Source of the DNA: Phycisphaerae bacterium
Lineage (GTDB): Bacteria > Planctomycetota > Phycisphaerae > UBA1845
Direction of reading: 5' to 3'
NCBI GenBank assembly: GCA_035356615.1
Contig: DAOQSN010000030.1
Coordinates: 167 to 64,166, forward strand
Length of the DNA stretch: 64,000 nt
Below the pieces are notes generated by a model that was given only the letters and a program-made list of their open reading frames with translations, did no database searches and was not told the origin of the DNA. Of this stretch, positions 9,663 to 56,247 are shown in pieces. How positions within the stretch are numbered: the stretch's first letter is position 1; the number at the start of each line of letters is the position of its first letter. The position numbers and the translations under genes were made by a program.

Positions 9663-12284
9663 TCAGGCGCCGATTGCGGCCGTAATCGCGCTCCAGTTCG
9701 GGCCGCTCGGCATCACAAACAGGCAGTGTCCTCCACTACGCTCCGCCCACAACTGGCCGACGGCCCGCTTTTCCTGCGAGTCGTCGTTGCTCCAGCGATC
9801 TGCGCCCTTGTACTCGACAACAAGAATCCGCCCGTCGGTCAACTCGGCGACGAAGTCTGGGTAGAACTTGTCCGTCGAAGTCTGCAGCCAGAACGATGAA
9901 TCGGCCCGCCGCTCCAGGTTGCGAACCCAGTACTTCACCTGCGGCAGGGCGTCGATGAACGCGGCGCACTCGAATTCCTCACCCTCCGAGCGGAGCTCGC
10001 CAATCGTACGGAAGTAGTGTTTCTGGAACTGGAAGCCGCCTTCGTAGTACCAACCCGGCGAGTACCGATCTTGCGCGTAGCTGAGGCACAGTTCCGCGCT
10101 GACCTCAAGCAGTGCTCCGCTGCCCCCGAACAGCAACGCCTGATACGCCTGCCCTGCGTGATTCCGGCGATGCTCCGCGACCTTTGCTTGCACCGCCTTC
10201 CGCAGCCGGAACTTGTCCCGTGCGAGTTGCTCGACGCTCAGTCCGCGGGTTTGCACCAAGCTGCTAATCAAGTTGTGCATGAACAGACTCGACATCCCCT
10301 GCGGGATATCCGGGTGCGCAATCTGGCGGTCCAACCAGTTTGCCAGCGACTGGACGCTCCAACCCGGCTCCACGGCCAGAAGAATTAACTGCTCCTGCAC
10401 CTTGGCGACGAACTGGGTCATCTCGACCTGGCCCGCCTCGGACACGTCGATTTCACCGCCTGCCCCCGCCGCGCGCTGTGAGGGGAACTCAGCTTCCGAC
10501 AGGCCCGCATCACACTCTGCTAGGTTCCATTCGGTGTCCAGGAAATGGTCCGCCTCGAAGAGTTCCAGTTGTTCACCGACGCGGATTCCCAGCAAGGGCA
10601 CGCGGAACGGGTGGTCTTCACCGCCCGTGCGTTGCACCGGGGGGAGCGGCAGCCGACTGAGTTCGAAAAGCTCGTCTACCGCTTCCCGGTCTGCCTCAGT
10701 GGAACACCAACTCCGAAGGGTGAGACGGTCCGAATCCGAGAGGGGACGATGCGCGCGGAGTTCACCCGTGGCGGGCAGGTACTGGACGACCGCCTGAGTG
10801 GGTGAGGGAAGCGCATCTGCGTTCAGCCACGGAGTCACCACAACGGAGGGTATCGTCGCCGCGATTCCGACCCCAGTTCGGCCGCCACCGTCACTCCGCT
10901 GCACAAAGTCCGCCGCTTCCATGCGCTGAAAGCCCAGGTTCTCTACCAGCGTATCGCGAATGGACTCCGCCGCTTCGAGAAAGGCCGGTGAGGCGGCGAA
11001 CGCGTACGCGTAGTTCAGTTCGGCCCGCTTCTTCCGCTTGGCGCGAGGCATGCGCAACACACGCCCGAGAAGCTGCTCCACCGCCCGCGACGAGTGGATA
11101 TCAGCGACCGAGCAGAGGACGTACGCAAACGAACAGTCCCACCCCTCCTTCAGTGCCTGCACGGTGATGATGTAGCGCAGCCTGCAGTGGCGGTCGAACA
11201 GGTCCACGTCGTCAAGCTCGCGCGTCTGCCCGGTGGCAACTGCGATTTCATCCTCGGGAACCTTGAAGTCGTCAATGAGACACTGTCGCACGACTTCGAC
11301 GGTCAGCGTCTGCCGGGTCTGGCTCCGCGCCTGCGCCTGAAACAGCACCAGCGGGCGAATATACTCGCCGGAACCGCGCTCTTCGTCCTCCGCTGCGGCC
11401 TCGAGTTCCCGCCGCGTCGCCAGCGCCGACGCGACGACTTCTTTCCACTCGCCGTGCGTTCGCAGCCTGATCGGCAGCTTAATCATGTCGGCCGCTTTCA
11501 GTTCCGCGGCCGACACGTGGTGGAGGACGTTGCTGGCGAACAGTTCCCGCTCCGGGCGGTGTTCGGTCTGGGGAGTCGCCGTGAACTCGATAATACACGA
11601 CGGGCTGAACCGGGCGAGCGTGTCGAAGGAAAGCGGCGTCCGGGCGTTGTGGGCCTCGTCCACCACGACCAGCGGGCGGCGCAACCGCAACACGTTGCAC
11701 AGGGAATACGGGATGCTCCCATCTTGCCGCTTCTCAAGTTGGCCTTCCAGCTCAGGCGGCAGCCCCGTGAAATGATGTTGCAGAGCGCCTGCTGGCTCGT
11801 ACACCTTCAGCCCTTCGGTATCGTCACGTCGCAAGGCCTGCAAAGTTGAAACGATAACCGTCGTGTCCCCGTCCAGCGTGGCACGCTGAACGTAGAGCGC
11901 TTCGGCAAGGTCCATGACCCGCACGTTGCCCGCGAACCGCGCGTCCAGCACCTGCCGGTACGGGTGTTCGCGGTCGCGCAGCGCCTTCAGGGTCTGTTCG
12001 CGGATCGTGTTCGACGGCACCAGCCACAGGCACACCGCCTGGTCCGAGTGCAGGTACGCGCGCGCCGCGATGCCCACCGCGTGGGCAGCCATGAGCGTCT
12101 TCCCGCCGCCCGTCGGTGCGCGCAGGCACACGTACGGCAATCCCGGCAGGCTCGGCGCAGGCACATACGGACGGTTCGTCGTGAGCACGAAAGCTCGTTG
12201 TGCCCCATGCTCCCCCGCGGCGGACAGGTACTCTTCCAGTACCTCCAGGCTGCGCTCTTGGTAGTCGCGAAGTTCGAGCATCAA
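9663..12284 (-). CDS. res: Type III restriction enzyme Res subunit (SF2 helicase + PD-(D/E)XK nuclease)
   Basis: PTGGGKT Walker A, DEAH, EFTATP, ALKEGWDC, EQLLGRVLRMP; C-terminal FYPDFVAELTDGRILVVEYKG. Confidence 0.9.
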   Translation of the reverse strand: MMLELRDYQERSLEVLEEYLSAAGEHGAQRAFVLTTNRPYVPAPSLPGLPYVCLRAPTGGGKTLMAAHAVGIAARAYLHSDQAVCLWLVPSNTIREQTLKALRDREHPYRQVLDARFAGNVRVMDLAEALYVQRATLDGDTTVIVSTLQALRRDDTEGLKVYEPAGALQHHFTGLPPELEGQLEKRQDGSIPYSLCNVLRLRRPLVVVDEAHNARTPLSFDTLARFSPSCIIEFTATPQTEHRPERELFASNVLHHVSAAELKAADMIKLPIRLRTHGEWKEVVASALATRRELEAAAEDEERGSGEYIRPLVLFQAQARSQTRQTLTVEVVRQCLIDDFKVPEDEIAVATGQTRELDDVDLFDRHCRLRYIITVQALKEGWDCSFAYVLCSVADIHSSRAVEQLLGRVLRMPRAKRKKRAELNYAYAFAASPAFLEAAESIRDTLVENLGFQRMEAADFVQRSDGGGRTGVGIAATIPSVVVTPWLNADALPSPTQAVVQYLPATGELRAHRPLSDSDRLTLRSWCSTEADREAVDELFELSRLPLPPVQRTGGEDHPFRVPLLGIRVGEQLELFEADHFLDTEWNLAECDAGLSEAEFPSQRAAGAGGEIDVSEAGQVEMTQFVAKVQEQLILLAVEPGWSVQSLANWLDRQIAHPDIPQGMSSLFMHNLISSLVQTRGLSVEQLARDKFRLRKAVQAKVAEHRRNHAGQAYQALLFGGSGALLEVSAELCLSYAQDRYSPGWYYEGGFQFQKHYFRTIGELRSEGEEFECAAFIDALPQVKYWVRNLERRADSSFWLQTSTDKFYPDFVAELTDGRILVVEYKGADRWSNDDSQEKRAVGQLWAERSGGHCLFVMPSGPNWSAITAAIGA

Positions 12285-12292
12285 GGCTCCCT

Positions 12293-12490
12293 TCAGCCGG
12301 CGACCTGAAACTGCATGCTCTGCACCTGCGCGACGCGTTTCGACGCGTCCAGAATCTCGATGCCCACCAGGTTCCCGCCCGCGTCGTAATCGAGGATCAC
12401 ACCCGGCTTGTCCTCATCGCTCTCGGCCACCGGTCCGGGCTTCAACTCCAGCGTCAGCGTGTCCGTCTTTGGGTCGTAGGTCGCTTTCAT
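12293..12490 (-). CDS. DUF2283-family protein (putative antitoxin)
   Basis: MKATYDPKTDTLTLEL...GVILDYDAGGNLVGIEILDAS is the typical DUF2283 pattern. ATGA overlap with the upstream gene. Confidence 0.85.
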   Translation of the reverse strand: MKATYDPKTDTLTLELKPGPVAESDEDKPGVILDYDAGGNLVGIEILDASKRVAQVQSMQFQVAG

Positions 12491-12741
12491 GGGCGACTCC
12501 TGTACTTGTCCACCTTGCGCATGCGATACGCGGTCAAGACTTCTGCGGCTTCGCGGTCCACGTCCACGACGACCCGCAGCAAATGCTGCCCTATCATACA
12601 TTGAACCAGCACCCGTCCCGCCCGGACGGGAACCACCTCATGCGGCGCCGCCAACACCCTCCGCACGTCGGCTTCGGCTACCTGGTGTCGAGCCATTTGC
12701 AGCGCGCCGTGCTCCGTGATGATAGCGCCTCTCAGGTCCAT
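12487..12741 (-). CDS. DUF4258-family protein (putative RNase toxin)
   Basis: ITEHGALQMARHQVAEADVRRVL...LLRVVVDVD...EVLTAYR. TGATG overlap with the mod stop codon. Confidence 0.75.
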   Translation of the reverse strand: MDLRGAIITEHGALQMARHQVAEADVRRVLAAPHEVVPVRAGRVLVQCMIGQHLLRVVVDVDREAAEVLTAYRMRKVDKYRSRP

Positions 12742-14393
12742 CAGGTCACCTTGATCTCATAGGGGATTTGCCGGAACACGATGCCCTCGCGTTTCAGGCG
12801 CGCCGCCCCCAGGCGACAGCTTTCACCGTAGATGACCCTCACCGTTACCTCTCCCTGGGAGGGAGACGCGTCGGGAAGCTCGCGGAGAACAGCCCCGGTA
12901 AGAACGTTCCCACCGTTCGGGCGTTTATCGCCCATCACGCCGTTGAACAACAAGTACACGGCCTTGCCGTTGTGAACTCCAAGCAGCGGCGAATACCCCC
13001 TCTCCCTCCCAGGGAGAGGGCTGGGGTGAGGGTCGGCGCCGTTGGCGCGCCGCGGCGTCCTCGGAATCGGCGCGCCGGTTTCGGTGAAGAACACATGCCC
13101 CGCCAGCTCGGGGAAGCGGACCGATTCGTGGATGTTGCCGCGCTCGTCAAACAGCGGCTCGCCCAGCTTGCAGTAGCGGAAGCCGCCGCCGCACGCGGGA
13201 ACCGCATCGCCCTTGCCTTCGACAACGCGTCGCAACCGCTGTGCCGCTACGCTTGCGGCGATGCTCTCGTCCATTTCGACCAGTACAAACCGTCGCTGTC
13301 CGCCGTCCGCTTTGTTCAGCGCTAGCACTGCGTGCCCCGTCGTAGCGCTCCCAGCGAACGAATCAAGCACAATCGAATCCCTGTCGGTCGCGATTTCGAG
13401 AATGCGTCGGATGAGGCGCGTGGGCTTGGGGGTATCGAAGGCGTTCTCGTCTCCCAGAAGCGCCACGACCTCCTTCTTGGCCTCTTGCGTGTGTCCGACC
13501 TCGTCGTTTGACCACCAAGTCCACACTGAGTTTCCGCCTGACTCGGACAGAAAGGTCTTTCGGCGCGGCATCGCATTGCCGTCCTTCCCGAACCAGATAC
13601 GCCCGTCCCGAACCAGTTCCAGGAACACAGATTCGACGTTCTTCCAGCAGACACCGGGAGGCGGTCGATACTCCTTTCCACCCGGGGTCCGAATCGTGTA
13701 CATCTGATTAGGGCGATATCCCTGTGCCGTGTAGTCCGAAGACACCCACGGCCCGCGCGGGTCATTGTCGGGATTCTTGAATTGCGCCGCCTGTTTTTTG
13801 CTTTTGGGTATCTTGCGAAACCTTACGGTGTCTGAGTTCTTCGCATAGAGGACTACGTAGTCATGTGCCGTGCTGAACGAGAGGCGCATGTCAGGCGACG
13901 TGCGTTTCTGCCAGACAGCGTTTGCCACGAAGTTGCGAACGCCGAATAGTTCGTCCATCATTCCCCGTAGGCCTTGCAGCTCAGTATCGTCGATGCTGAC
14001 GAAGAGGACCCCGTCTTCGGTCAGAAACTCCCGTAGCAGTGCAAGCCGCGGGTACATCATGCACAGCCACTTGTCGTGGCGCGACAGATCTTCGGCTTCG
14101 GCACCGACGACCTTCCCCAGCCAGTGCCGCATTTCCGGGCTGTTCACGGCATCGTTGTAGACCCACTTTTCATTCCCCGTGTTGTAGGGCGGGTCGATGT
14201 AGATGCACTTGACCTTGCCGGCGTAGTAGGGCAGCAGGGCCTTGAGCGCTTCCAGGTTGTCCCCCTGCACAAGCAGATTCCCGGCGTCCGGGCCGCCGGC
14301 CGACAGGCTCGCGTCACAGTGCAGCAGGCGGTACGGCACCTGCTTGTGGTGGTTCAGAACGGCTTTCTTGCCTATCCAGTCCAGCGTGGGCAT
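12741..14393 (-). CDS. mod: Type III site-specific DNA methyltransferase (Mod, beta-class)
   Basis: GDNLEALK, IYIDPPYNTG, FDTPKP, VLDSFAGSATTGHA; start MPTLDWIGK. Confidence 0.92.
   Translation of the reverse strand: MPTLDWIGKKAVLNHHKQVPYRLLHCDASLSAGGPDAGNLLVQGDNLEALKALLPYYAGKVKCIYIDPPYNTGNEKWVYNDAVNSPEMRHWLGKVVGAEAEDLSRHDKWLCMMYPRLALLREFLTEDGVLFVSIDDTELQGLRGMMDELFGVRNFVANAVWQKRTSPDMRLSFSTAHDYVVLYAKNSDTVRFRKIPKSKKQAAQFKNPDNDPRGPWVSSDYTAQGYRPNQMYTIRTPGGKEYRPPPGVCWKNVESVFLELVRDGRIWFGKDGNAMPRRKTFLSESGGNSVWTWWSNDEVGHTQEAKKEVVALLGDENAFDTPKPTRLIRRILEIATDRDSIVLDSFAGSATTGHAVLALNKADGGQRRFVLVEMDESIAASVAAQRLRRVVEGKGDAVPACGGGFRYCKLGEPLFDERGNIHESVRFPELAGHVFFTETGAPIPRTPRRANGADPHPSPLPGRERGYSPLLGVHNGKAVYLLFNGVMGDKRPNGGNVLTGAVLRELPDASPSQGEVTVRVIYGESCRLGAARLKREGIVFRQIPYEIKVT
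12848..12866 (+). repeat. Hairpin remnant of the CCCTCTCCC/GGGAGAGGG repeat inside mod
   Basis: cctctccctgggagggaga is the exact 19-nt reverse complement of 13001-13019. It encodes part of ASPSQGEV. Confidence 0.7.
12998..13032 (-). repeat. CCCTCACCC-n-CCCTCTCCC-loop-GGGAGAGGG palindromic element, in frame inside mod
   Basis: Minus strand ccctcaccccagccctctccctgggagggagaggg encodes PHPSPLPGRERG. Confidence 0.9.
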
Positions 14394-14529
14394 TCGCGGC
14401 CAGCCTCCGTCAGCACCCGGCGTCCGCACGGATTATGCCCGGCAGGGTCCCGCTGTAAAGTGGGAATCTCGGCAGGGGCGGCGTCTGGCAGGGAGCCGGC
14501 GCACGTGGACCCGTGCCAGCCGACGCACA

Positions 14530-14561
14530 GCATGCCCACGCTGCGCGAGGGCATGGCACCC
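14530..14561. repeat. Short partial copy of the GGGTGCCATGC family
   Basis: gcatgcccacgctgcgcgagggcatggcaccc resembles the termini of the 2846-2988 and 20154-20296 element. Confidence 0.6.
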
Positions 14562-14597
14562 AGCGGGGGCACCCGGCGCGGACTCGCAGACGGTGAT

Positions 14598-15593
14598 TCA
14601 GGTGTGCAGCTCCACGATGTCCTTGTCGTGCAGGATGTGATCAAGCTCGACGTTCTGGCCGTCGGCCACGCCGGAGCCCCAGAGGCGTGCGGCGCGCACG
14701 CGGTGCTCGTGGCCGTGGTACACCTTGCGGGCAAGCTCGTGCACGTTGCTGCCGGCCGGCAGGATGAAGGGGTCGGCAAGGTCGGGCTTCTTGCCCGGCG
14801 GCTTCGCGTAGATGCGGATGACACGCACCAGCTTGAAGAACAGCTCCGGCAGGCGGGCCATGCGCTCGGGGTCGCGCGTGGAGAGCGGCTCGATGCGCGC
14901 ACGCGTGCCGACGAGCTCCCGCAGCAACTCCAGGCGCTCGTCCGCGCCGGCCGCGTCGATCTTGTTGGCCAGCACCAGGCCGGGGACTTTCAACATCGCC
15001 CCCGGCTGGGCCGGATGCTCACGCGGACCGTCCGTCAGCTCGACGTTGCGCTCCGCCAGGTGATTGAGGCACGTCTCGACGTCCTCCAATACAGAGTTGC
15101 TGGCGAGGTCCGCCACTACCAGCAGGACGTCGGCCGACCGCCACAGGCCCGGAAAACCCGCGGGCACGTCGTCGGCCGTGACCGGCGGCGTGTCCACAAG
15201 CTGAATCTGCACGTCCTCGTAGTGGACCATGCCCGGCACCGGCAGGGCCGTGGCGAAGGGGTATTCCGTGATCTTCACGTGCGCGCTGGTCAGCCCGCCG
15301 ACGATGGACGATTTGCCGACGTTCGGCGTGCCGAGCAACACGACCTGCCCCGCGCCGCCCCTGGGGATGCTGAACGGGTTGGCCTGGCCGGGGCCCTTGC
15401 GCTCGACCTGCTGCAACGCCTTGCGCGCCGCGGAGAGCTTCTTCTTGAGGTCAGCCTGGAGCTTCTCCGACGACTTGTGCTTGGGCAGCTCGCGCCACAT
15501 CTCCTCCAGCGCGGCCAACTTCTCCTCGGGCGTGGTGGCCGCCCGGTACCTGGCCTCGGCCGCGAGGTACTGCGGTGTCAAGTTGGCGGCCAT
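14598..15593 (-). CDS. DRG/OBG-family GTPase with C-terminal TGS domain
   Basis: MAANLTPQY start, LEEMWRELPKHKSSEKL, G1 GTPNVGKSS, G3 DTPP, G4 NKID, TGS tail with GQNVELDHILHDKDIVELH. Confidence 0.9.
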   Translation of the reverse strand: MAANLTPQYLAAEARYRAATTPEEKLAALEEMWRELPKHKSSEKLQADLKKKLSAARKALQQVERKGPGQANPFSIPRGGAGQVVLLGTPNVGKSSIVGGLTSAHVKITEYPFATALPVPGMVHYEDVQIQLVDTPPVTADDVPAGFPGLWRSADVLLVVADLASNSVLEDVETCLNHLAERNVELTDGPREHPAQPGAMLKVPGLVLANKIDAAGADERLELLRELVGTRARIEPLSTRDPERMARLPELFFKLVRVIRIYAKPPGKKPDLADPFILPAGSNVHELARKVYHGHEHRVRAARLWGSGVADGQNVELDHILHDKDIVELHT

Positions 15594-15668
15594 CAGCGCA
15601 GCTCCCTTTCCGCACGCCACTGCTCACCTATGATGACAGATGTTCGCGGCGATCCCCGCCCTGAGCAA

Positions 15669-15752
15669 CCCCCCTCCCTCCCAGGGAGGGGTCCGGGAGG
15701 GTTGAACCACCGCGGCATTCCCCTCACCCTGCCCTCTCCACATACGGGCGGG
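15669..15752. repeat. Head-to-head doublet of the CCCTCACCC palindromic element (reverse copy + 18-nt spacer + forward copy), intergenic
   Basis: Spacer ttgaaccaccgcggcatt is 13/18 identical to the spacer tcaagccaacgcggcact of the doublet inside mnmE. Confidence 0.8.
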
Positions 15753-15783
15753 CAACCGCAAGGGCATGATAGCCCGTTTCCGC

Positions 15784-15812
15784 TTGAATCAGGCGGGCCG
15801 CATGGGTATGAT
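15784..15812 (+). promoter_or_regulatory. Sigma70-type promoter of the repeat-protein gene
   Basis: TTGAAT-17 nt-TATGAT. RBS AAGGAGAGG precedes GTG at 15885. Confidence 0.7.
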
Positions 15813-15884
15813 GGCAGCTTCAAGTCCGATAAATGGGAAATGTCAGTTCAGCAGGCGAGGGCCAGGCTTTACAAGGAGAGGACT

Positions 15885-18437
15885 GTGAGCGACAGCCGTA
15901 CAACGCATCGGAATCCGTCGTTGCGGGCGTGGGCCGGGGCGGTGAGTGTCATCATTCTGGCACTGGCGGGCGTCGTGCCAGTGGCGCTGGCCCAGGACTG
16001 CGACTGGTTGCCGGGCGAGGGCGTGCCGGGGACCGACGGCCCTGTATATGCCACCACTACGTGGGACCCCGATGGACCGGGGCCGCAGCCCGAGCTGCTT
16101 GTTATCGGTGGGCAGTTCACACTGGCGGGCGACGTTGTCGCAAACAACATCGCCGCGTGGGACGGCAGCACCTGGCAGCCGCTGGGGTCGGGGATGAATG
16201 CCAGTGTGCGCGCCCTGACGGTGCACGACGGTGAGTTGATCGCGGGGGGCTATTTCACAAGCGCCGGAGGTGTGACGTGCAACTACATCGCCCGCTGGAA
16301 CGGCAGCGCCTGGCAGCCGCTAGGGTCGGGGATGAGCGGCGGTGTGCGCGCCCTGACGGTGTACAACGGCGAGCTGGTTGCGGGGGGCGTTTTCACGACC
16401 GCCGGCGGCGTGCCGTGCAACCGCGTCGCCCGCTGGGACGGCACCATATGGCAGGCGCTGGGGTCGGGGATGGGCAGTTACGACCCAGGCGTGTACGCCC
16501 TGACGGTCTACAACGGCGAGCTGATCGCGGGGGGCTGGTTCACGACCGCCGGTGGCGTGACATGCAACTACATCGCTCGCTGGAACGGCGGCGTCTGGCA
16601 GCCGTTGGGGTCGGGGATGAACAACGCGGTGTACTCCCTGACCGTCTGCGACGGCCAACTGATCGCAGGGGGCGAGTTTTGGAGCGCTGGGGGCGTGCCG
16701 TGCAACCACATTGCCCGCTGGAACGGCAGTGCTTGGCAGTCGCTGGGGTCGGGGATGGGCAGCCCCTGGGTGTATGCCCTAGCGGTCTACAACGGGGAGC
16801 TCATTGCGGGGGGCAGTTTCACAAGTGCCGGCGGCGTGCTGTGCAACTTCATCGCCCGTTGGACCGGCAGCGCCTGGGAGCCGCTGGGGTCGGGGATGGG
16901 CGGCTTTGTGTACGCCCTGACGGTCTACGATGGCGAGCTGATCGCAGGGGGCGAGTTTACCATCGCCGGTGATATGCTCTGCAACTACATTGCCCGCTGG
17001 AACGGCAGCGCCTGGGAAGCTCTGGGGGCGGCGATAGGCGGTGCTTCCCCATCACCCGTGTACGCCCTTACGGTCTACGACGGCGAGCTGCTTGCGGGGG
17101 GCTCTTTCACGACCGCCGGTGGCGTGACATGCAACTATATCGCTCGCTGGAACGGCGGCGCCTGGCAGCCGCTGGGCAGTGGAATGGCCGGCGACTACTA
17201 TCCCTATGTTTACGCGCTTACGGTCTACAACGGCGAACTGATCGCGGGGGGCCGGTTCACGACCGCCGGCGGCGTCCCGTGCAACTGCATCGCCCGCTGG
17301 AACGGCAGCGCCTGGCAGCCGCTGGGGTCGGGAATTGGGTCCCAATTCTCAGTGGTGTACGCGCTCACCGTCTACAACGGCGAGCTGCTTGCGGGGGGCA
17401 GTTTCTGGACCGCCGGCGGCGTGTCGTGCAAGTGCATCGCCCGCTGGGACGGCAGCGCTTGGCAGCCGCTTGGGTCGGGGATGAACGCCAGCGTGTGCGC
17501 CCTGACGGTCTACAACGGCGAACTGATCGCGGGAGGCGCTTTCACGACCGCCGGCGGCGCGACGCGCGCATACATCGCCCGCTGGAATGGGAGCACTTGG
17601 CACCCTGTGGGGTCGGGGATGGGCGGCAACATCCCCGACGTGCTCGCCCTGACGGTCTACAACGGCGAGCTGATCGCGGGGGGCGCTTTCACGGCCGCCG
17701 GCGGCGTGCCGTGCAACCGCATCGCCCGCTGGAACAGCAGCGCCTGGCAGGCGCTGGGATCGGGGATGGACGACCGAGTGAACGCCCTAACGGTCTACAA
17801 TGGGGAGGTGATCGCGGGGGGCTGGTTCACGACCGCCGGCGGCGCGACATCCAACTACATAGCCCGCTGGGATGGCAGCGCCTGGCAGCCTCTGGGGTCC
17901 GGGATGAACAATAACGTGTACGCTCTGACGGCCTACAGCGGAGAGTTGATCGCGGGGGGCGCTTTCACGACCGCCGGCGGGTACATCTCGTACTACTGGG
18001 CCCGCTGGGCTTGCTTTGCCGACTGCGATCTCGACACCGATGGCGACGTTGATGAGGACGATTTCTGGATGTTTGTCGGCGCGTTCGGCACGTGCACAGG
18101 TGACACCGGCTTCCTGGCTGAGGCGGACTTCGACAGTGACGGGTGTGTCACGCTGACCGACTACGGGCAATGGCTGCAATGCTACATCGATGCCAACGGC
18201 CGGGAGTTCGGCGCCCCCCCTCCAGCGCCCGCCGAGCCAATCCTATTGCCCGTCGAACCCGTCCCGCCGCCCGGCGAACCGATTCCATCGCCCGCCGACC
18301 CCCTGCCACCGTCTGCCGAACCGACTCCCGTGGGCAGCGAGTCGGGTGCTCTGCTTGGCGAACCGACCACGCCGACCGTCGAACCGGCACCTTCCCGGCC
18401 GGTGAAAGCGGCAGCCCCGGTCTCGGCCGATCGGTAG
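15885..18437 (+). CDS. Secreted Trp/Gly-rich beta-propeller-type repeat protein (13 full + 1 partial repeats) with dockerin-like tag and Pro-rich tail
   Basis: GTG start after a strong RBS; signal peptide ending VALAQ. 46-50 aa repeats GELIAGGxFTxAGGVxCNxIARWNGSAWQPLGSGM(x)nVYALTVYN. C-terminal DCDLDTDGDVDEDDF...DFDSDGCVTLTDY. Confidence 0.9.
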   Translation: MSDSRTTHRNPSLRAWAGAVSVIILALAGVVPVALAQDCDWLPGEGVPGTDGPVYATTTWDPDGPGPQPELLVIGGQFTLAGDVVANNIAAWDGSTWQPLGSGMNASVRALTVHDGELIAGGYFTSAGGVTCNYIARWNGSAWQPLGSGMSGGVRALTVYNGELVAGGVFTTAGGVPCNRVARWDGTIWQALGSGMGSYDPGVYALTVYNGELIAGGWFTTAGGVTCNYIARWNGGVWQPLGSGMNNAVYSLTVCDGQLIAGGEFWSAGGVPCNHIARWNGSAWQSLGSGMGSPWVYALAVYNGELIAGGSFTSAGGVLCNFIARWTGSAWEPLGSGMGGFVYALTVYDGELIAGGEFTIAGDMLCNYIARWNGSAWEALGAAIGGASPSPVYALTVYDGELLAGGSFTTAGGVTCNYIARWNGGAWQPLGSGMAGDYYPYVYALTVYNGELIAGGRFTTAGGVPCNCIARWNGSAWQPLGSGIGSQFSVVYALTVYNGELLAGGSFWTAGGVSCKCIARWDGSAWQPLGSGMNASVCALTVYNGELIAGGAFTTAGGATRAYIARWNGSTWHPVGSGMGGNIPDVLALTVYNGELIAGGAFTAAGGVPCNRIARWNSSAWQALGSGMDDRVNALTVYNGEVIAGGWFTTAGGATSNYIARWDGSAWQPLGSGMNNNVYALTAYSGELIAGGAFTTAGGYISYYWARWACFADCDLDTDGDVDEDDFWMFVGAFGTCTGDTGFLAEADFDSDGCVTLTDYGQWLQCYIDANGREFGAPPPAPAEPILLPVEPVPPPGEPIPSPADPLPPSAEPTPVGSESGALLGEPTTPTVEPAPSRPVKAAAPVSADR

Positions 18438-54390: not shown

Positions 54391-54690
54391 GACGACGCCT
54401 GGTTCGCTGAGTGCAGTTGTTGTCGGGGCGCATGCACGCTCGTCATCAGTTCCCCAGGTCCAAAGGACCTGGGCCACCCCATCGTCCCCGGGTCCGAAGG
54501 AGTAGGGCCGCGGCGCGGGGCCGCGTGCTCCCTGGCGCAGATCGGATAGTATCGTAGGCAGCCGGAGAAGTCTCCGGCCGCCTTCGTGCGTCGGCTGGGG
54601 TGAGCGCGGAGGGCGTGGTGTTTCTGCCCAGTGGCTGTGGCGCGGGGTTTCCGCCCCGCGAACGCGGTGCGACGGGGCCGACGGTGTCGC

Positions 54691-56247
54691 ATGCTGGATC
54701 GGCTGGATGAGACCATTGTGGCGGTTTCGTCCGCGCCGGGGCGCGGGGCGCTGGGGATCGTCCGCGTAAGTGGGTCGCAGGCGCTGAGCATCGCGGACCG
54801 AGTCGCCAAAGTGGGGACGCCGCTGGCGTCGCAACGGGGGTGGACCCGCGTGGCGGGCGAAGTGAGGGTATCGGACGAGGTGAGCACCCCTGACGCCACC
54901 CCGCTCCCTTTCAGGGAGGAGTTGGGAGAGGGTCAAGCCAACGCGGCACTCCCCCTCACCCTGCCCTTTCCCCCAAGGGGGAGAGGGGTTTCGTCAGACG
55001 CCCCAAGGGGCAGAGAGGTTCCGTCAGGCGCCCTAAGCGTGCCGGCGTGGTTCTACGTGTTTCGCCGACCACACAGTTACACACGTGACGACCTGGTGGA
55101 GGTGCACACGCTCGGCTCGCCGGTGGTGCTGGAGATGGTCCGGCAACGCCTGCTGACGGCCGGGGCGGTGGCGGCCGAGCCCGGCGAGTTCACCGCGCGG
55201 GCGTTCCTCGCGGGCGGGATGGACCTGACGCAGGCGGAGGCGGTCGCCGGCATCATTCGCGCGCAAACGGATACCCAGTTACGGGCGGCCCGGCGCCTGA
55301 TGGACGGTGCGCTAGCGGCGCCGATCGTGGCCGCCAGTGAGCAGCTTACCGAGTTGACCGCGCTGGTGGAGGCCCAGATCGACTTCTCCGAGGAGCCGAT
55401 CGAGTTCATCACGCCGATCCAACTGCGGACGCGGCTGACGGAACTGGCGGGGCAATTGCGTCGGTTGCGCACGGAGGGGCTGTCCGCCGAACGGTTGCAG
55501 GAACTGCCGCACGTGCTGCTGCTGGGATCACCGAACGTCGGCAAGAGCACGCTGCTCAACGCGCTAAGCGGCACGCCACGGGCGATCTGTGCGGCCGCCG
55601 CGGGCACGACGCGCGACATTCTGTCGGTGCCGGTGCGTCTGGGGGCGGGGGAGGCGATGTTGCTGGACGCGGCCGGCCTGGACCAGACGGTCGATGAGGT
55701 GCTCGCGCAGGCCCGCGTGCTGACGCTGGCGGCCGCGGCGCGCGTGGACCTGATCTGCCTGGTAGCCGACGCCGGCGCGCCGGGGGGTGCCCTGGGCGAC
55801 GTGGTGGAGCACGTGCGTGCCCTGGAGTCTCCGCGCGTGGTCATCGCCGCGAACAAGTGTGATCTGCTCGGTCCGGCCGAGCAGGCACGGCGGGTGCGGG
55901 AGTTGGCCGAGCTTCGCCTGGGGGCGGTGTGTCCCGTGAGCGCGTTGACGCAGGCGGGCCTGGTGGCGCTACGCGAGGAGCTTGCGGGGGTCTTGTACGG
56001 TCCGCGCGGGGCCGGGCTAACCGTGGAACGGGAGGCGCTGGTGCTGAGCGGACGGCATCGGGAGGCGCTGGACGAGGCGGTGGACGCTCTCGTTCGGGCC
56101 ATCGAGCTGAGCCGGGCGACCGACGCCGCGGAGCTGGTGGCGTTCGAGCTGCGTACCGCGCTGAACGCCCTGGGTCAGATCACCGGCGCCGTGGCCACGG
56201 AAGACCTGCTGAGCCTGGTGTTCTCGCGCTTCTGCATCGGAAAGTGA
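54691..56247 (+). CDS. mnmE: tRNA modification GTPase MnmE with a ~50-aa repeat-derived insertion
   Basis: TIVAVSSAPGRGALGIVRVSG, PHSYTRDDLVEVH, GEFTARAF..G.MDLTQAEAV, GSPNVGKS, GTTRD, NKCD, C-terminal FSRFCIGK. Confidence 0.95.
   Translation: MLDRLDETIVAVSSAPGRGALGIVRVSGSQALSIADRVAKVGTPLASQRGWTRVAGEVRVSDEVSTPDATPLPFREELGEGQANAALPLTLPFPPRGRGVSSDAPRGREVPSGALSVPAWFYVFRRPHSYTRDDLVEVHTLGSPVVLEMVRQRLLTAGAVAAEPGEFTARAFLAGGMDLTQAEAVAGIIRAQTDTQLRAARRLMDGALAAPIVAASEQLTELTALVEAQIDFSEEPIEFITPIQLRTRLTELAGQLRRLRTEGLSAERLQELPHVLLLGSPNVGKSTLLNALSGTPRAICAAAAGTTRDILSVPVRLGAGEAMLLDAAGLDQTVDEVLAQARVLTLAAAARVDLICLVADAGAPGGALGDVVEHVRALESPRVVIAANKCDLLGPAEQARRVRELAELRLGAVCPVSALTQAGLVALREELAGVLYGPRGAGLTVEREALVLSGRHREALDEAVDALVRAIELSRATDAAELVAFELRTALNALGQITGAVATEDLLSLVFSRFCIGK
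54887..55033. repeat. Composite palindromic insert (doublet of the CCCTCACCC element + short tandem tail), in frame inside mnmE
   Basis: Reverse copy 54901-54932, 18-nt spacer, forward copy 54951-54988. Bounded by cctgacg / cgtcagg inverted repeats. Confidence 0.88.

Follow-up and report, generated by a model that had tools for sequence, protein, structure and literature searches.

In-frame BoxC/TM repeats in the methyltransferase gene of a Type III restriction-modification system from a Phycisphaerae bacterium

Introduction

How does a methyltransferase gene come to carry two copies of a repeat within its coding sequence, in opposite orientation, and still keep its reading frame? The question is raised by mod, the gene for the methyltransferase (Mod) of a Type III restriction-modification (R-M) system, which lies in a stretch of 64,000 nucleotides from a Phycisphaerae bacterium (GenBank assembly GCA_035356615.1, contig DAOQSN010000030.1, positions 167 to 64,166), referred to here as the window. 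A previous account made from the letters of the window alone, the sequence-only reading, had proposed that a repeat of the host entered the region encoding the C-terminal domain of Mod, that the locus had therefore been resident for some time, and that the resulting inverted repeat could fold the mRNA or promote inversion or deletion. Our results indicate, with a probability that we put at roughly 0.8, that an intact Type III Mod tolerates two in-frame repeats of the BoxC/TM class in its permissive loops, and that these repeats are neutral or nearly so.

Few short repeats of bacteria are as widely conserved as the BoxC/TM motifs, and we know of no function or means of spread for these motifs. 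The names BoxC (Bachellier/Bergler) and PIT (Hoyne/Maher) are earlier ones, as cited in PMC4666352. Holder et al. (2015, PMC4666352) reported the motif from more than 260 genomes and found that its single strand forms a stable triplex in vitro. The same study describes TM motifs as inverted pairs of type A and type B and links TM loci to local instability. In E. coli, PIT/BoxC elements are without promoter or terminator activity, and the 23 TM copies of strain K-12 are "always located intergenically" (PMC4666352).

Results

Two stretches of Mod are absent from its homologues

The sequence-only reading had named an alignment with Mod homologues as one of its checks. This was run as a protein alignment with 27 homologues and, for the two nearest loci, L001 and L006, as an alignment of the DNA by codons. 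The protein search returned Mod itself and then relatives of 525-548 aa at no more than 80% identity. In all 27 comparisons both stretches are extra in the window Mod, and loops of equal length were not seen. At site 1 the homologues read PIPK-RATGK-TPLLGV, where the window Mod has PIPR-TP-RRANG-ADPHPSPLPGRERG-Y-SPLLGV; at site 2 they read LP-AHDGP-R(V/I)IYGE, where it has LP-DASPSQGEVTV-RVIYGE. The claim of two repeat-derived stretches in opposite orientation is thus borne out, as both are missing from the homologues and the Mod frame is intact. Coordinates of all features are collected in Table 1.

Insert 1 is read from the minus strand, with its C-rich strand coding, as residues 453-466 of Mod (ADPHPSPLPGRERG), a peptide that is Pro-rich at first and then Gly/Arg/Glu-rich. 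Translation agrees with what had been reported earlier, the minus strand of 12998-13032 encoding PHPSPLPGRERG and positions 12848-12866 lying within ASPSQGEV. The native Lys codon that follows insert 1 has been changed to TAT (Tyr), and a separate addition of 9 nt is shared with the allele P0021, where its three codons read K-R-P. Insert 2 is read as DASPSQGEVTV (residues 508-518) and comprises 33 nt in place of 15 native nt (AHDGP), a net gain of 18 nt. It is confined to the window allele, being absent from P0021 and from every other allele compared.

A repeat search recovered the inverted repeat as it had been described, with two arms of 19 nt that are 100% complementary and separated by 134 nt. 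Outside these arms lies another exact pair, of 10 nt (12834-12843 and 13025-13034). The second remnant had been taken to be the 19-mer at 12848-12866; its being an exact inverted copy holds, but the remnant is larger than the 19-mer and constitutes a degraded partial copy of the repeat. With up to 3 mismatches allowed, 6 occurrences of the 19-mer were counted in the window, where 0.06 would be expected, and this count, together with the homologue alignments, rules out chance similarity or native loops. The same 19-mer is found exactly in 13 other genomic copies of the repeat. The exact identity of the arms is therefore explained by both inserts belonging to one repeat sub-family, and gene conversion between the arms is unnecessary as its cause. 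The heptamer gccaacg, which had been regarded as a flank of the repeat shared with the mnmE gene of the window, proved to be native Mod sequence: GCC AAC GGC (A-N-G) aligns with GCC ACN GGN (A-T-G) of the homologues. Its recurrence in the mnmE spacer is therefore that of a chance 7-mer.

The inserts belong to the BoxC/TM class

A full-text literature search with the blocks CCCTCTCCC, GGGAGAGGG and GGGTGAGGG led to the identity of the repeat. Judged by its letters and build, it is the G/C-rich intrastrand-triplex motif known as BoxC, PIT or TM, as in E. coli. Insert 1 and the E. coli K-12 element TMECO no. 12 (Table 1 of PMC4666352) are identical at 33 of 36 positions, and the 3 differences all fall in loops. 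In a triplex motif a C-rich block is followed directly by its G-rich complement and then by a G-rich third block in mirror arrangement, with limits applied here of 6-15 nt for stems and 1-6 nt for loops. Insert 1 has this architecture in full, as CCCTCTCCCT/CCC/AGGGAGAGGG/CT/GGGGTGAGGG, and insert 2 has it in degraded form only, with a 7-bp stem and an 8-nt third block. The designation of the element as a host repeat does not stand, as the motif is pan-bacterial and is also found in genomes of other Planctomycetota and of Anaerolineae.

A pattern scan of the whole assembly (5.03 Mb, 67% G+C) found 221 copies when the pattern was strict and 335 when it was loosened. The copies fall into sub-families A (consensus ACCC-CTCTCCCTnnCAGGGAGAGGGGnAGGGGTGAGGGT), A2, B (consensus CTCTCCCCCnnGGGGGAGAGGGnAGGGTGAGGGG) and C (consensus CCCTCCCTnnnAGGGAGGGGTnGGGGGAGGGT), and B/C and B/A copies often form inverted doublets. 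Sub-family A2 has one G fewer than A and comprises 11 copies, insert 1 among them. Insert 1 is 95-97.5% identical to other genomic copies over 38-41 nt, and other contigs of the same samples match the region from 12994/6 to 13033/5. The flanks of the genomic copies showed no conserved target. No Rfam family matched positions 12000-16000, and Rfam has no model for the motif. Mobilisation in the manner of repetitive extragenic palindromic (REP) sequences and their associated RAYT transposases was considered and rejected. The genome has 6 matches to Y1_Tnp (Y1-transposase-like), the repeat is absent within 800 nt of the 5 of these genes that were looked at, and it bears no GTAG/CGTC terminal tag. 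On another contig of the assembly (C1:405515-405820), five A-type units stand in tandem with a 68-nt period.

Repeat copies lie within other genes of the genome

A crude test for coding-like surroundings, namely an open frame across the copy and coding-type G+C at third codon positions (GC3) on both sides, flagged 53 of the 335 copies (about 1 in 6) as lying in coding-like open reading frames (ORFs). The E. coli-type intergenic location does not apply to these copies or to the two Mod inserts; that location is a habit reported for one species and stands outside the definition of the motif. Counted by hand, 26 of the 53 are forward relative to the ORF and 27 reverse, with no bias. The C-rich strand has no stop codon in any frame and the G-rich strand has TGA in one, so that the repeat, open in 5 of 6 frames, is intrinsically compatible with coding sequence.

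The comparison case in the window is mnmE (54631-56247). MnmE is a universally conserved tRNA-modification GTPase, and alignment to PDB 3gee places about 50 extra residues between MnmE residues 78 and 142, in its N-terminal domain (insert at about 54880-55040). The insert is absent from the orthologues of two repeat-bearing relatives, G008 and G040. As a control for recurrent insertion mnmE was set aside, the three orthologues found, none with the insert, being too few. Three more real multidomain proteins, a FAD-oxidase, a glycosyltransferase-TPR protein and a fucosidase, have copies in interdomain linkers.

Two further ORFs outside the window were noted. One, of about 1580 aa (C24:73825-75464), holds three A2-type copies and a weak Y1_Tnp (PF01797) match. 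In the other, a long UvrA-like ORF with a duplicated ABC ATPase, a B-type copy lies in frame (C2:182567-182601); REPs inside excision-repair genes were noted by Di Nocera et al. (PMC3733652).

Both inserts fall in loops of the C-terminal domain

An AlphaFold2 model of Mod was built on a 28-sequence alignment, with a mean predicted local distance difference test (pLDDT) score of 74. For residues 444-466, the segment of insert 1 and the R-T-P addition, pLDDT is below 50. Insert 2 lies between a helix (500-505) and a strand (518-523), in a block that scores 68-79. Both inserts are far downstream of the catalytic DPPY and motif I. According to the model, both inserts are in poorly ordered, length-variable surface loops of the C-terminal domain.

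Other Mods carry the same motif at site 1

Recurrence was surveyed in 76 Mod loci from species-representative genomes and in the 120 best database homologues, with DNA for most carriers. In the survey alignment site 1 is the most often expanded position of the family. In every site-1 carrier (Table 1) the C-rich strand is coding, and the hairpin ends 1-3 codons before (S/T)PLLG. Hairpin copies number 85, 24 and 28 in the host genomes of L040, L020 and L037, respectively, against 0 in a reversed-pattern control. Unrelated hairpins occupy site 1 in L014 and L061. Three lineages have hairpins in a second Mod loop, near residue 33: that of L020 is perfect, with a 13-bp stem (z = -7.3), the insert of L037 is a TM-like element and that of L072 a G/C hairpin.

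Members of the Mod family are mosaics. When the window allele is compared with L001, L104, L040 and L006, identity between alleles is 75-100% at the two ends (residues 1-120 and 340-550) and only 22-50% in the centre (residues 140-330), the presumed target-recognition domain (TRD), a pattern which indicates that TRDs have been swapped by recombination. A full-length tree was rejected for counting insertions, as it is misleading for such a gene; because the ends are conserved and the TRD exchanged, a tree of the C-terminal domain was used in its place, with insert columns removed and approximately unbiased (AU) tests on 57 rows. This tree requires 7-8 changes of the carrier state, of which well-supported branches make at least 5 unavoidable. 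The AU tests reject a single clade of all carriers (p-AU 1e-7) and a clade of the window Mod, P0021 and L040 (p-AU 2.5e-9), but not a clade of the window Mod with P0021 (p-AU 0.35). Each carrier group has an insert-free C-terminal domain that stands closer to it than does any carrier of another group. It appears from these sequences that at least five independent Mod lineages, in several phyla (Planctomycetota, Chloroflexota and others), captured the motif at site 1 in the same orientation. For 5-7 independent events in one orientation the two-sided binomial p is about 0.02-0.06, which is suggestive, not conclusive. The linker may be very permissive, or insertion may be targeted to it; the recurrence suggests one or the other.

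The inverted arms and their possible rearrangements

Folding of the mRNA, as had been anticipated, is predicted in silico. A long-range stem of 19+10 bp is present in both the minimum free energy (MFE) and the centroid structure, at -135.8 kcal/mol for 261 nt and z = -5.86 against shuffles. Inversion through the 19-nt arms is predicted to place two in-frame stop codons in mod, and inversion through the outer 10-nt arms would leave the frame open and scramble conserved residues. Direct 9-mers stand 151 nt apart, so that a deletion between them would shift the mod frame.

Inversion or deletion between the arms found no support in the contigs examined. Thirteen contigs of JGI, NCBI and Logan assemblies, drawn from several samples, have the identical 1653-nt mod, with 0 DNA differences in the three JGI/NCBI loci that were fetched (L003-L005). 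All 13 contigs have a single arrangement, and no variants or strand-switch joints were seen at the inserts in three activated-sludge (Logan) assemblies. The predicted inverted junction CTCACCGTTACCTCTCCCTGGGAGGGAGAGGGGGTATTCGCCG gave 0 matches in JGI metagenome contigs, but the wild-type control likewise gave 0, as the records of the genome itself were masked there, so that this zero carries no weight.

The gene and its operon

On the minus strand, mod extends from an ATG at 14393 to 12741, with an alternative GTG upstream at 14429. Its product has a match to Pfam PF01555 and a full-length match to PADLOC MTase_III PDLC03644 (E 7.9e-195), and the best Foldseek matches of its model are the Type III Mods 6k0w, 4zcf and 7dsu, in agreement with the PDB sequence matches. 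In the translation, DPPY stands at residue 67 and motif I, DSFAGSATTG, at residues 344-353. This is the layout of a Type III R-M system, with a beta-class N6-adenine Mod (DPPY before FxGxG, central TRD) followed by a Res subunit with a superfamily 2 (SF2) helicase domain. A 185-aa open frame antisense to mod (12768-13325, plus strand) spans both inserts; high G+C most likely accounts for it.

The content of the gap between mod and res varies by allele. It holds DUF4258 and DUF2283 genes in the window and in L001, a ParE/RelB-like gene in L104/L105, DUF4160 and DUF2442 in L107 and PDDEXK_3 in L108, and it is empty in L006. It appears to be a hotspot for guest genes that resemble toxin-antitoxin genes.

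Among 40 relatives of the same family or order no mod orthologue was found, the best match being 58% identical. The operon has a G+C content of 61-64% and a GC3 of 68-78%, against 67% G+C for the genome. Both observations are consistent with horizontal acquisition.

Table 1. Features of the window and Mods elsewhere that carry the motif at site 1
Feature	Position in the window, or source	Strand	Description
mod, Type III R-M methyltransferase gene	12741..14393	-	550 aa from ATG; intact
res, Type III restriction subunit gene	9663..12281	-	872 aa, intact; Pfam ResIII; PADLOC REase_III PDLC03650, E 3.5e-144
DUF4258 gene	12487..12741	-	First of a two-gene cassette between mod and res; Pfam PF14076; gene calls on L003
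DUF2283 gene	12293..12490	-	Second cassette gene between mod and res; Pfam PF10049; gene calls
Left arm, exact 19-nt inverted repeat	12848..12866		Partner 13001-13019
Right arm, exact 19-nt inverted repeat	13001..13019		Partner 12848-12866
Insert 1, complete BoxC/TM repeat	12996..13037	+ (G-rich strand)	CCCTCTCCCT-CCC-AGGGAGAGGG-CT-GGGGTGAGGG; 42-nt gap in homologues
9-nt addition	~13052..13061	-	Three codons, R-T-P; separate from and upstream of insert 1; codon alignments
Insert 2, degraded BoxC/TM copy	about 12834..12872	- (G-rich, coding strand)	GTCTCCCT-CCC-AGGGAGAGG-TAAC-GGTGAGGGTC
Repeat doublet in mnmE	54902..54987	+	C-type + B-type, inverted; in frame; comparison case
L104 = P0021	Metagenome contigs		Site 1: same BoxC/TM motif
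L040	Planctomycetota metagenome-assembled genome		Site 1: same BoxC/TM motif
L106 = P0029, also P0034	Metagenome contig		Site 1: same BoxC/TM motif
L107 = P0072, also P0090	Metagenome contig		Site 1: same BoxC/TM motif
L108 = P0093	Metagenome contig		Site 1: two BoxC/TM copies
L020 and L037	Anaerolineae		Site 1: same BoxC/TM motif; diverged in L037
P0104	Protein only		Site 1: TM-like by peptide (probable)

Discussion

The explanation that we favour is that two members of the BoxC/PIT/TM class became fixed in frame in the 3' third of an otherwise intact mod gene. Each repeat consists of a hairpin followed by a G-rich third block that could form an intrastrand triplex. In the case of insert 1, a full 42-nt copy would have landed so that its C-rich strand is read; in that of insert 2, a truncated and mutated copy in the opposite orientation would have displaced five native codons. 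Insertions that keep the frame may be tolerated in loops because the repeat is open in 5 of 6 frames, and they could persist as passengers, in the manner of the Rickettsia palindromic elements. We infer that the inserts are without function of their own and that the inverted geometry is a by-product of two nearby members of one repeat family. They are probably harmless for the R-M system, and Mod would still be active despite them.

Three observations weigh against neutral tolerance in an active enzyme. The second Gly of FxGxG in motif I (window 13335-13364) is Ala in this Mod, FAGSA in place of the FAGSG of 99 of 102 relatives, and among the 102 aligned sequences this Ala recurs in only 2 others; as a reservation about activity it is minor. 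The recurrence of site and orientation in other lineages would, under random insertion, need a very strong selection filter. Lastly, insert 1 appears intact though, to judge from its sharing with P0021, it may be older than the degraded insert 2, and it could be a maintained sequence rather than a neutral one.

The recurrence has a possible reading of its own, in which BoxC/TM, or its mobiliser, recognises DNA just upstream of the (K)(S/T)PLLG codons and inserts in one orientation. Site-1 copies in the window Mod, P0021, L040, P0029 with P0034, P0072 with P0090, P0093, L020 with L037 and probably P0104, the invariably coding C-rich strand, the hairpin end at 1-3 codons from (S/T)PLLG, the repeated changes of state on the tree with rejection of the single-clade hypotheses, and the hairpin copies in three host genomes all fit such targeting, as does the even split in orientation (26 to 27) of the intragenic copies in the host. 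But the insertions at site 1 are in three reading frames with differing left junctions, as expected if selection trimmed random events, and the unrelated hairpins at site 1, along with those of the residue-33 loop, point to the permissiveness of loops. The orientation statistic is borderline, given also that the forward orientation loses about 1 frame in 3 to TGA; no conserved target is seen in the flanks of the genomic copies, and no transposase can be linked to the repeat. Targeted insertion is thus regarded as unlikely, and tolerance of in-frame repeats in permissive loops is preferred. A question of a different kind is where the inserts were gained. The inference of long residence had rested on a repeat of the host entering the gene, and it is weak, since insert 1, its 9-nt companion and the Lys-to-Tyr change are common to P0021, which comes from unrelated metagenomes. 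The p-AU of 0.35 fits the shared addition and Tyr codon and suggests that insert 1 may predate the split of the window Mod and P0021; insert 1 may have travelled with the gene and therefore gives no date for residence in the host. It is conceivable, at somewhat less than even odds, that the inserts date from an earlier host and came in together with the R-M operon, in which case they say nothing of how long the operon has resided in this genome. The sharing with P0021 from other samples, a motif nearly identical from E. coli to Planctomycetota, the lack of an orthologue among the 40 relatives and the base composition of the operon speak for this; the absence of insert 2 from P0021 and every other allele, and the presence in the host of matching sub-family copies, 11 of them of the same spacing type, speak for gain at home.

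The inverted geometry has invited two functional proposals. In one, the arms pair in the mod mRNA as an interrupted duplex of about 29 bp which slows ribosomes or makes a site for a double-strand RNase, so that expression of the downstream cassette and of res is tuned relative to mod. The predicted stem (z = -5.86) stands just upstream of the DUF4258-DUF2283-res genes. However, insert 2 is unique to the window allele, so that the pairing is not conserved in P0021 or other carriers, the stem is inside a translated ORF, and PIT/BoxC elements have neither promoter nor terminator activity in E. coli (PMC4666352); a regulatory role of the RNA seems quite improbable. In the other proposal, recombination between the arms would turn Mod, and the Mod-dependent Res, off and on. 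The exact arms 134 nt apart and the two stops of the inverted, OFF allele are compatible with a switch, intragenic invertons are described in other bacteria (bioRxiv 10.1101/2023.03.11.532203), and Holder et al. associated TM loci with instability (PMC4666352). Yet one arrangement is found throughout the 13 contigs, the three JGI/NCBI loci and the three Logan assemblies, no recombinase gene adjoins the operon, 19 bp is short for homologous recombination, and the arms are the shared core of a repeat family. A switch is the least probable of the explanations considered here, and we give it very little credence.

Several known systems resemble the tolerated inserts in part. The E. coli BoxC/PIT/TMECO elements have the same three-block build, near-identical letters, multiple copies with at least 2 sub-types in inverted doublets, and no linked transposase. 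They differ in that K-12 has 23 intergenic copies, whereas here there are 220-335, about 1 in 6 of them in coding-like ORFs and two in a single mod. Rickettsia palindromic elements are about 100-150 bp long, A/T-rich and not known outside Rickettsia; the repeat in mod is 35-42 bp, G/C-rich, of triplex type and pan-bacterial. The likeness lies in the mode of residence, as the Rickettsia elements are palindromic selfish repeats found in frame in functional genes, absent from orthologues and translated as extra surface loops (Ogata et al., as summarised in PMC3733652 and PMC10969869). The Mod inserts likewise lie in an ORF, keep its frame and are absent from orthologues. REPs with GTAG/CGTC tags have been found in ORFs of several species, members of the Planctomycetes-Verrucomicrobia-Chlamydiae (PVC) superphylum included, sometimes twice per ORF and encoding 20-30 residues (Di Nocera et al. 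2013, PMC3733652). In contrast, the repeat in mod has no such terminal tag, and the Y1-transposase (RAYT-like) genes examined here are not flanked by it. Phase-variable Type III mod genes and invertons also place repeat DNA in an ORF that could in principle be switched off by it. Known phasevarions use simple-sequence tracts and known invertons use dedicated invertases, and the assemblies examined here show no length or orientation variants.

Taken together, the locus is best read as a new example of a known phenomenon, in-frame repeat passengers, with a class of repeat so far described only between genes. What is new is a single Mod family in which the same repeat was captured independently at the same linker, at least five times, in other phyla also. 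BoxC/TM motifs can thus colonise coding sequence in frame, like the Rickettsia palindromic elements, and the Mod family offers natural filled and empty sites at which their insertion can be studied. A note of caution for annotation follows, as loops of the PxPxPLPxGEG type in proteins of G/C-rich genomes may be repeat-derived. That the linker before (S/T)PLLG is a natural, orientation-specific landing site for BoxC/TM repeats is a doubtful proposition at present; if true, it would be the first recurrent target known for these motifs, and the mechanism by which they spread would become testable.

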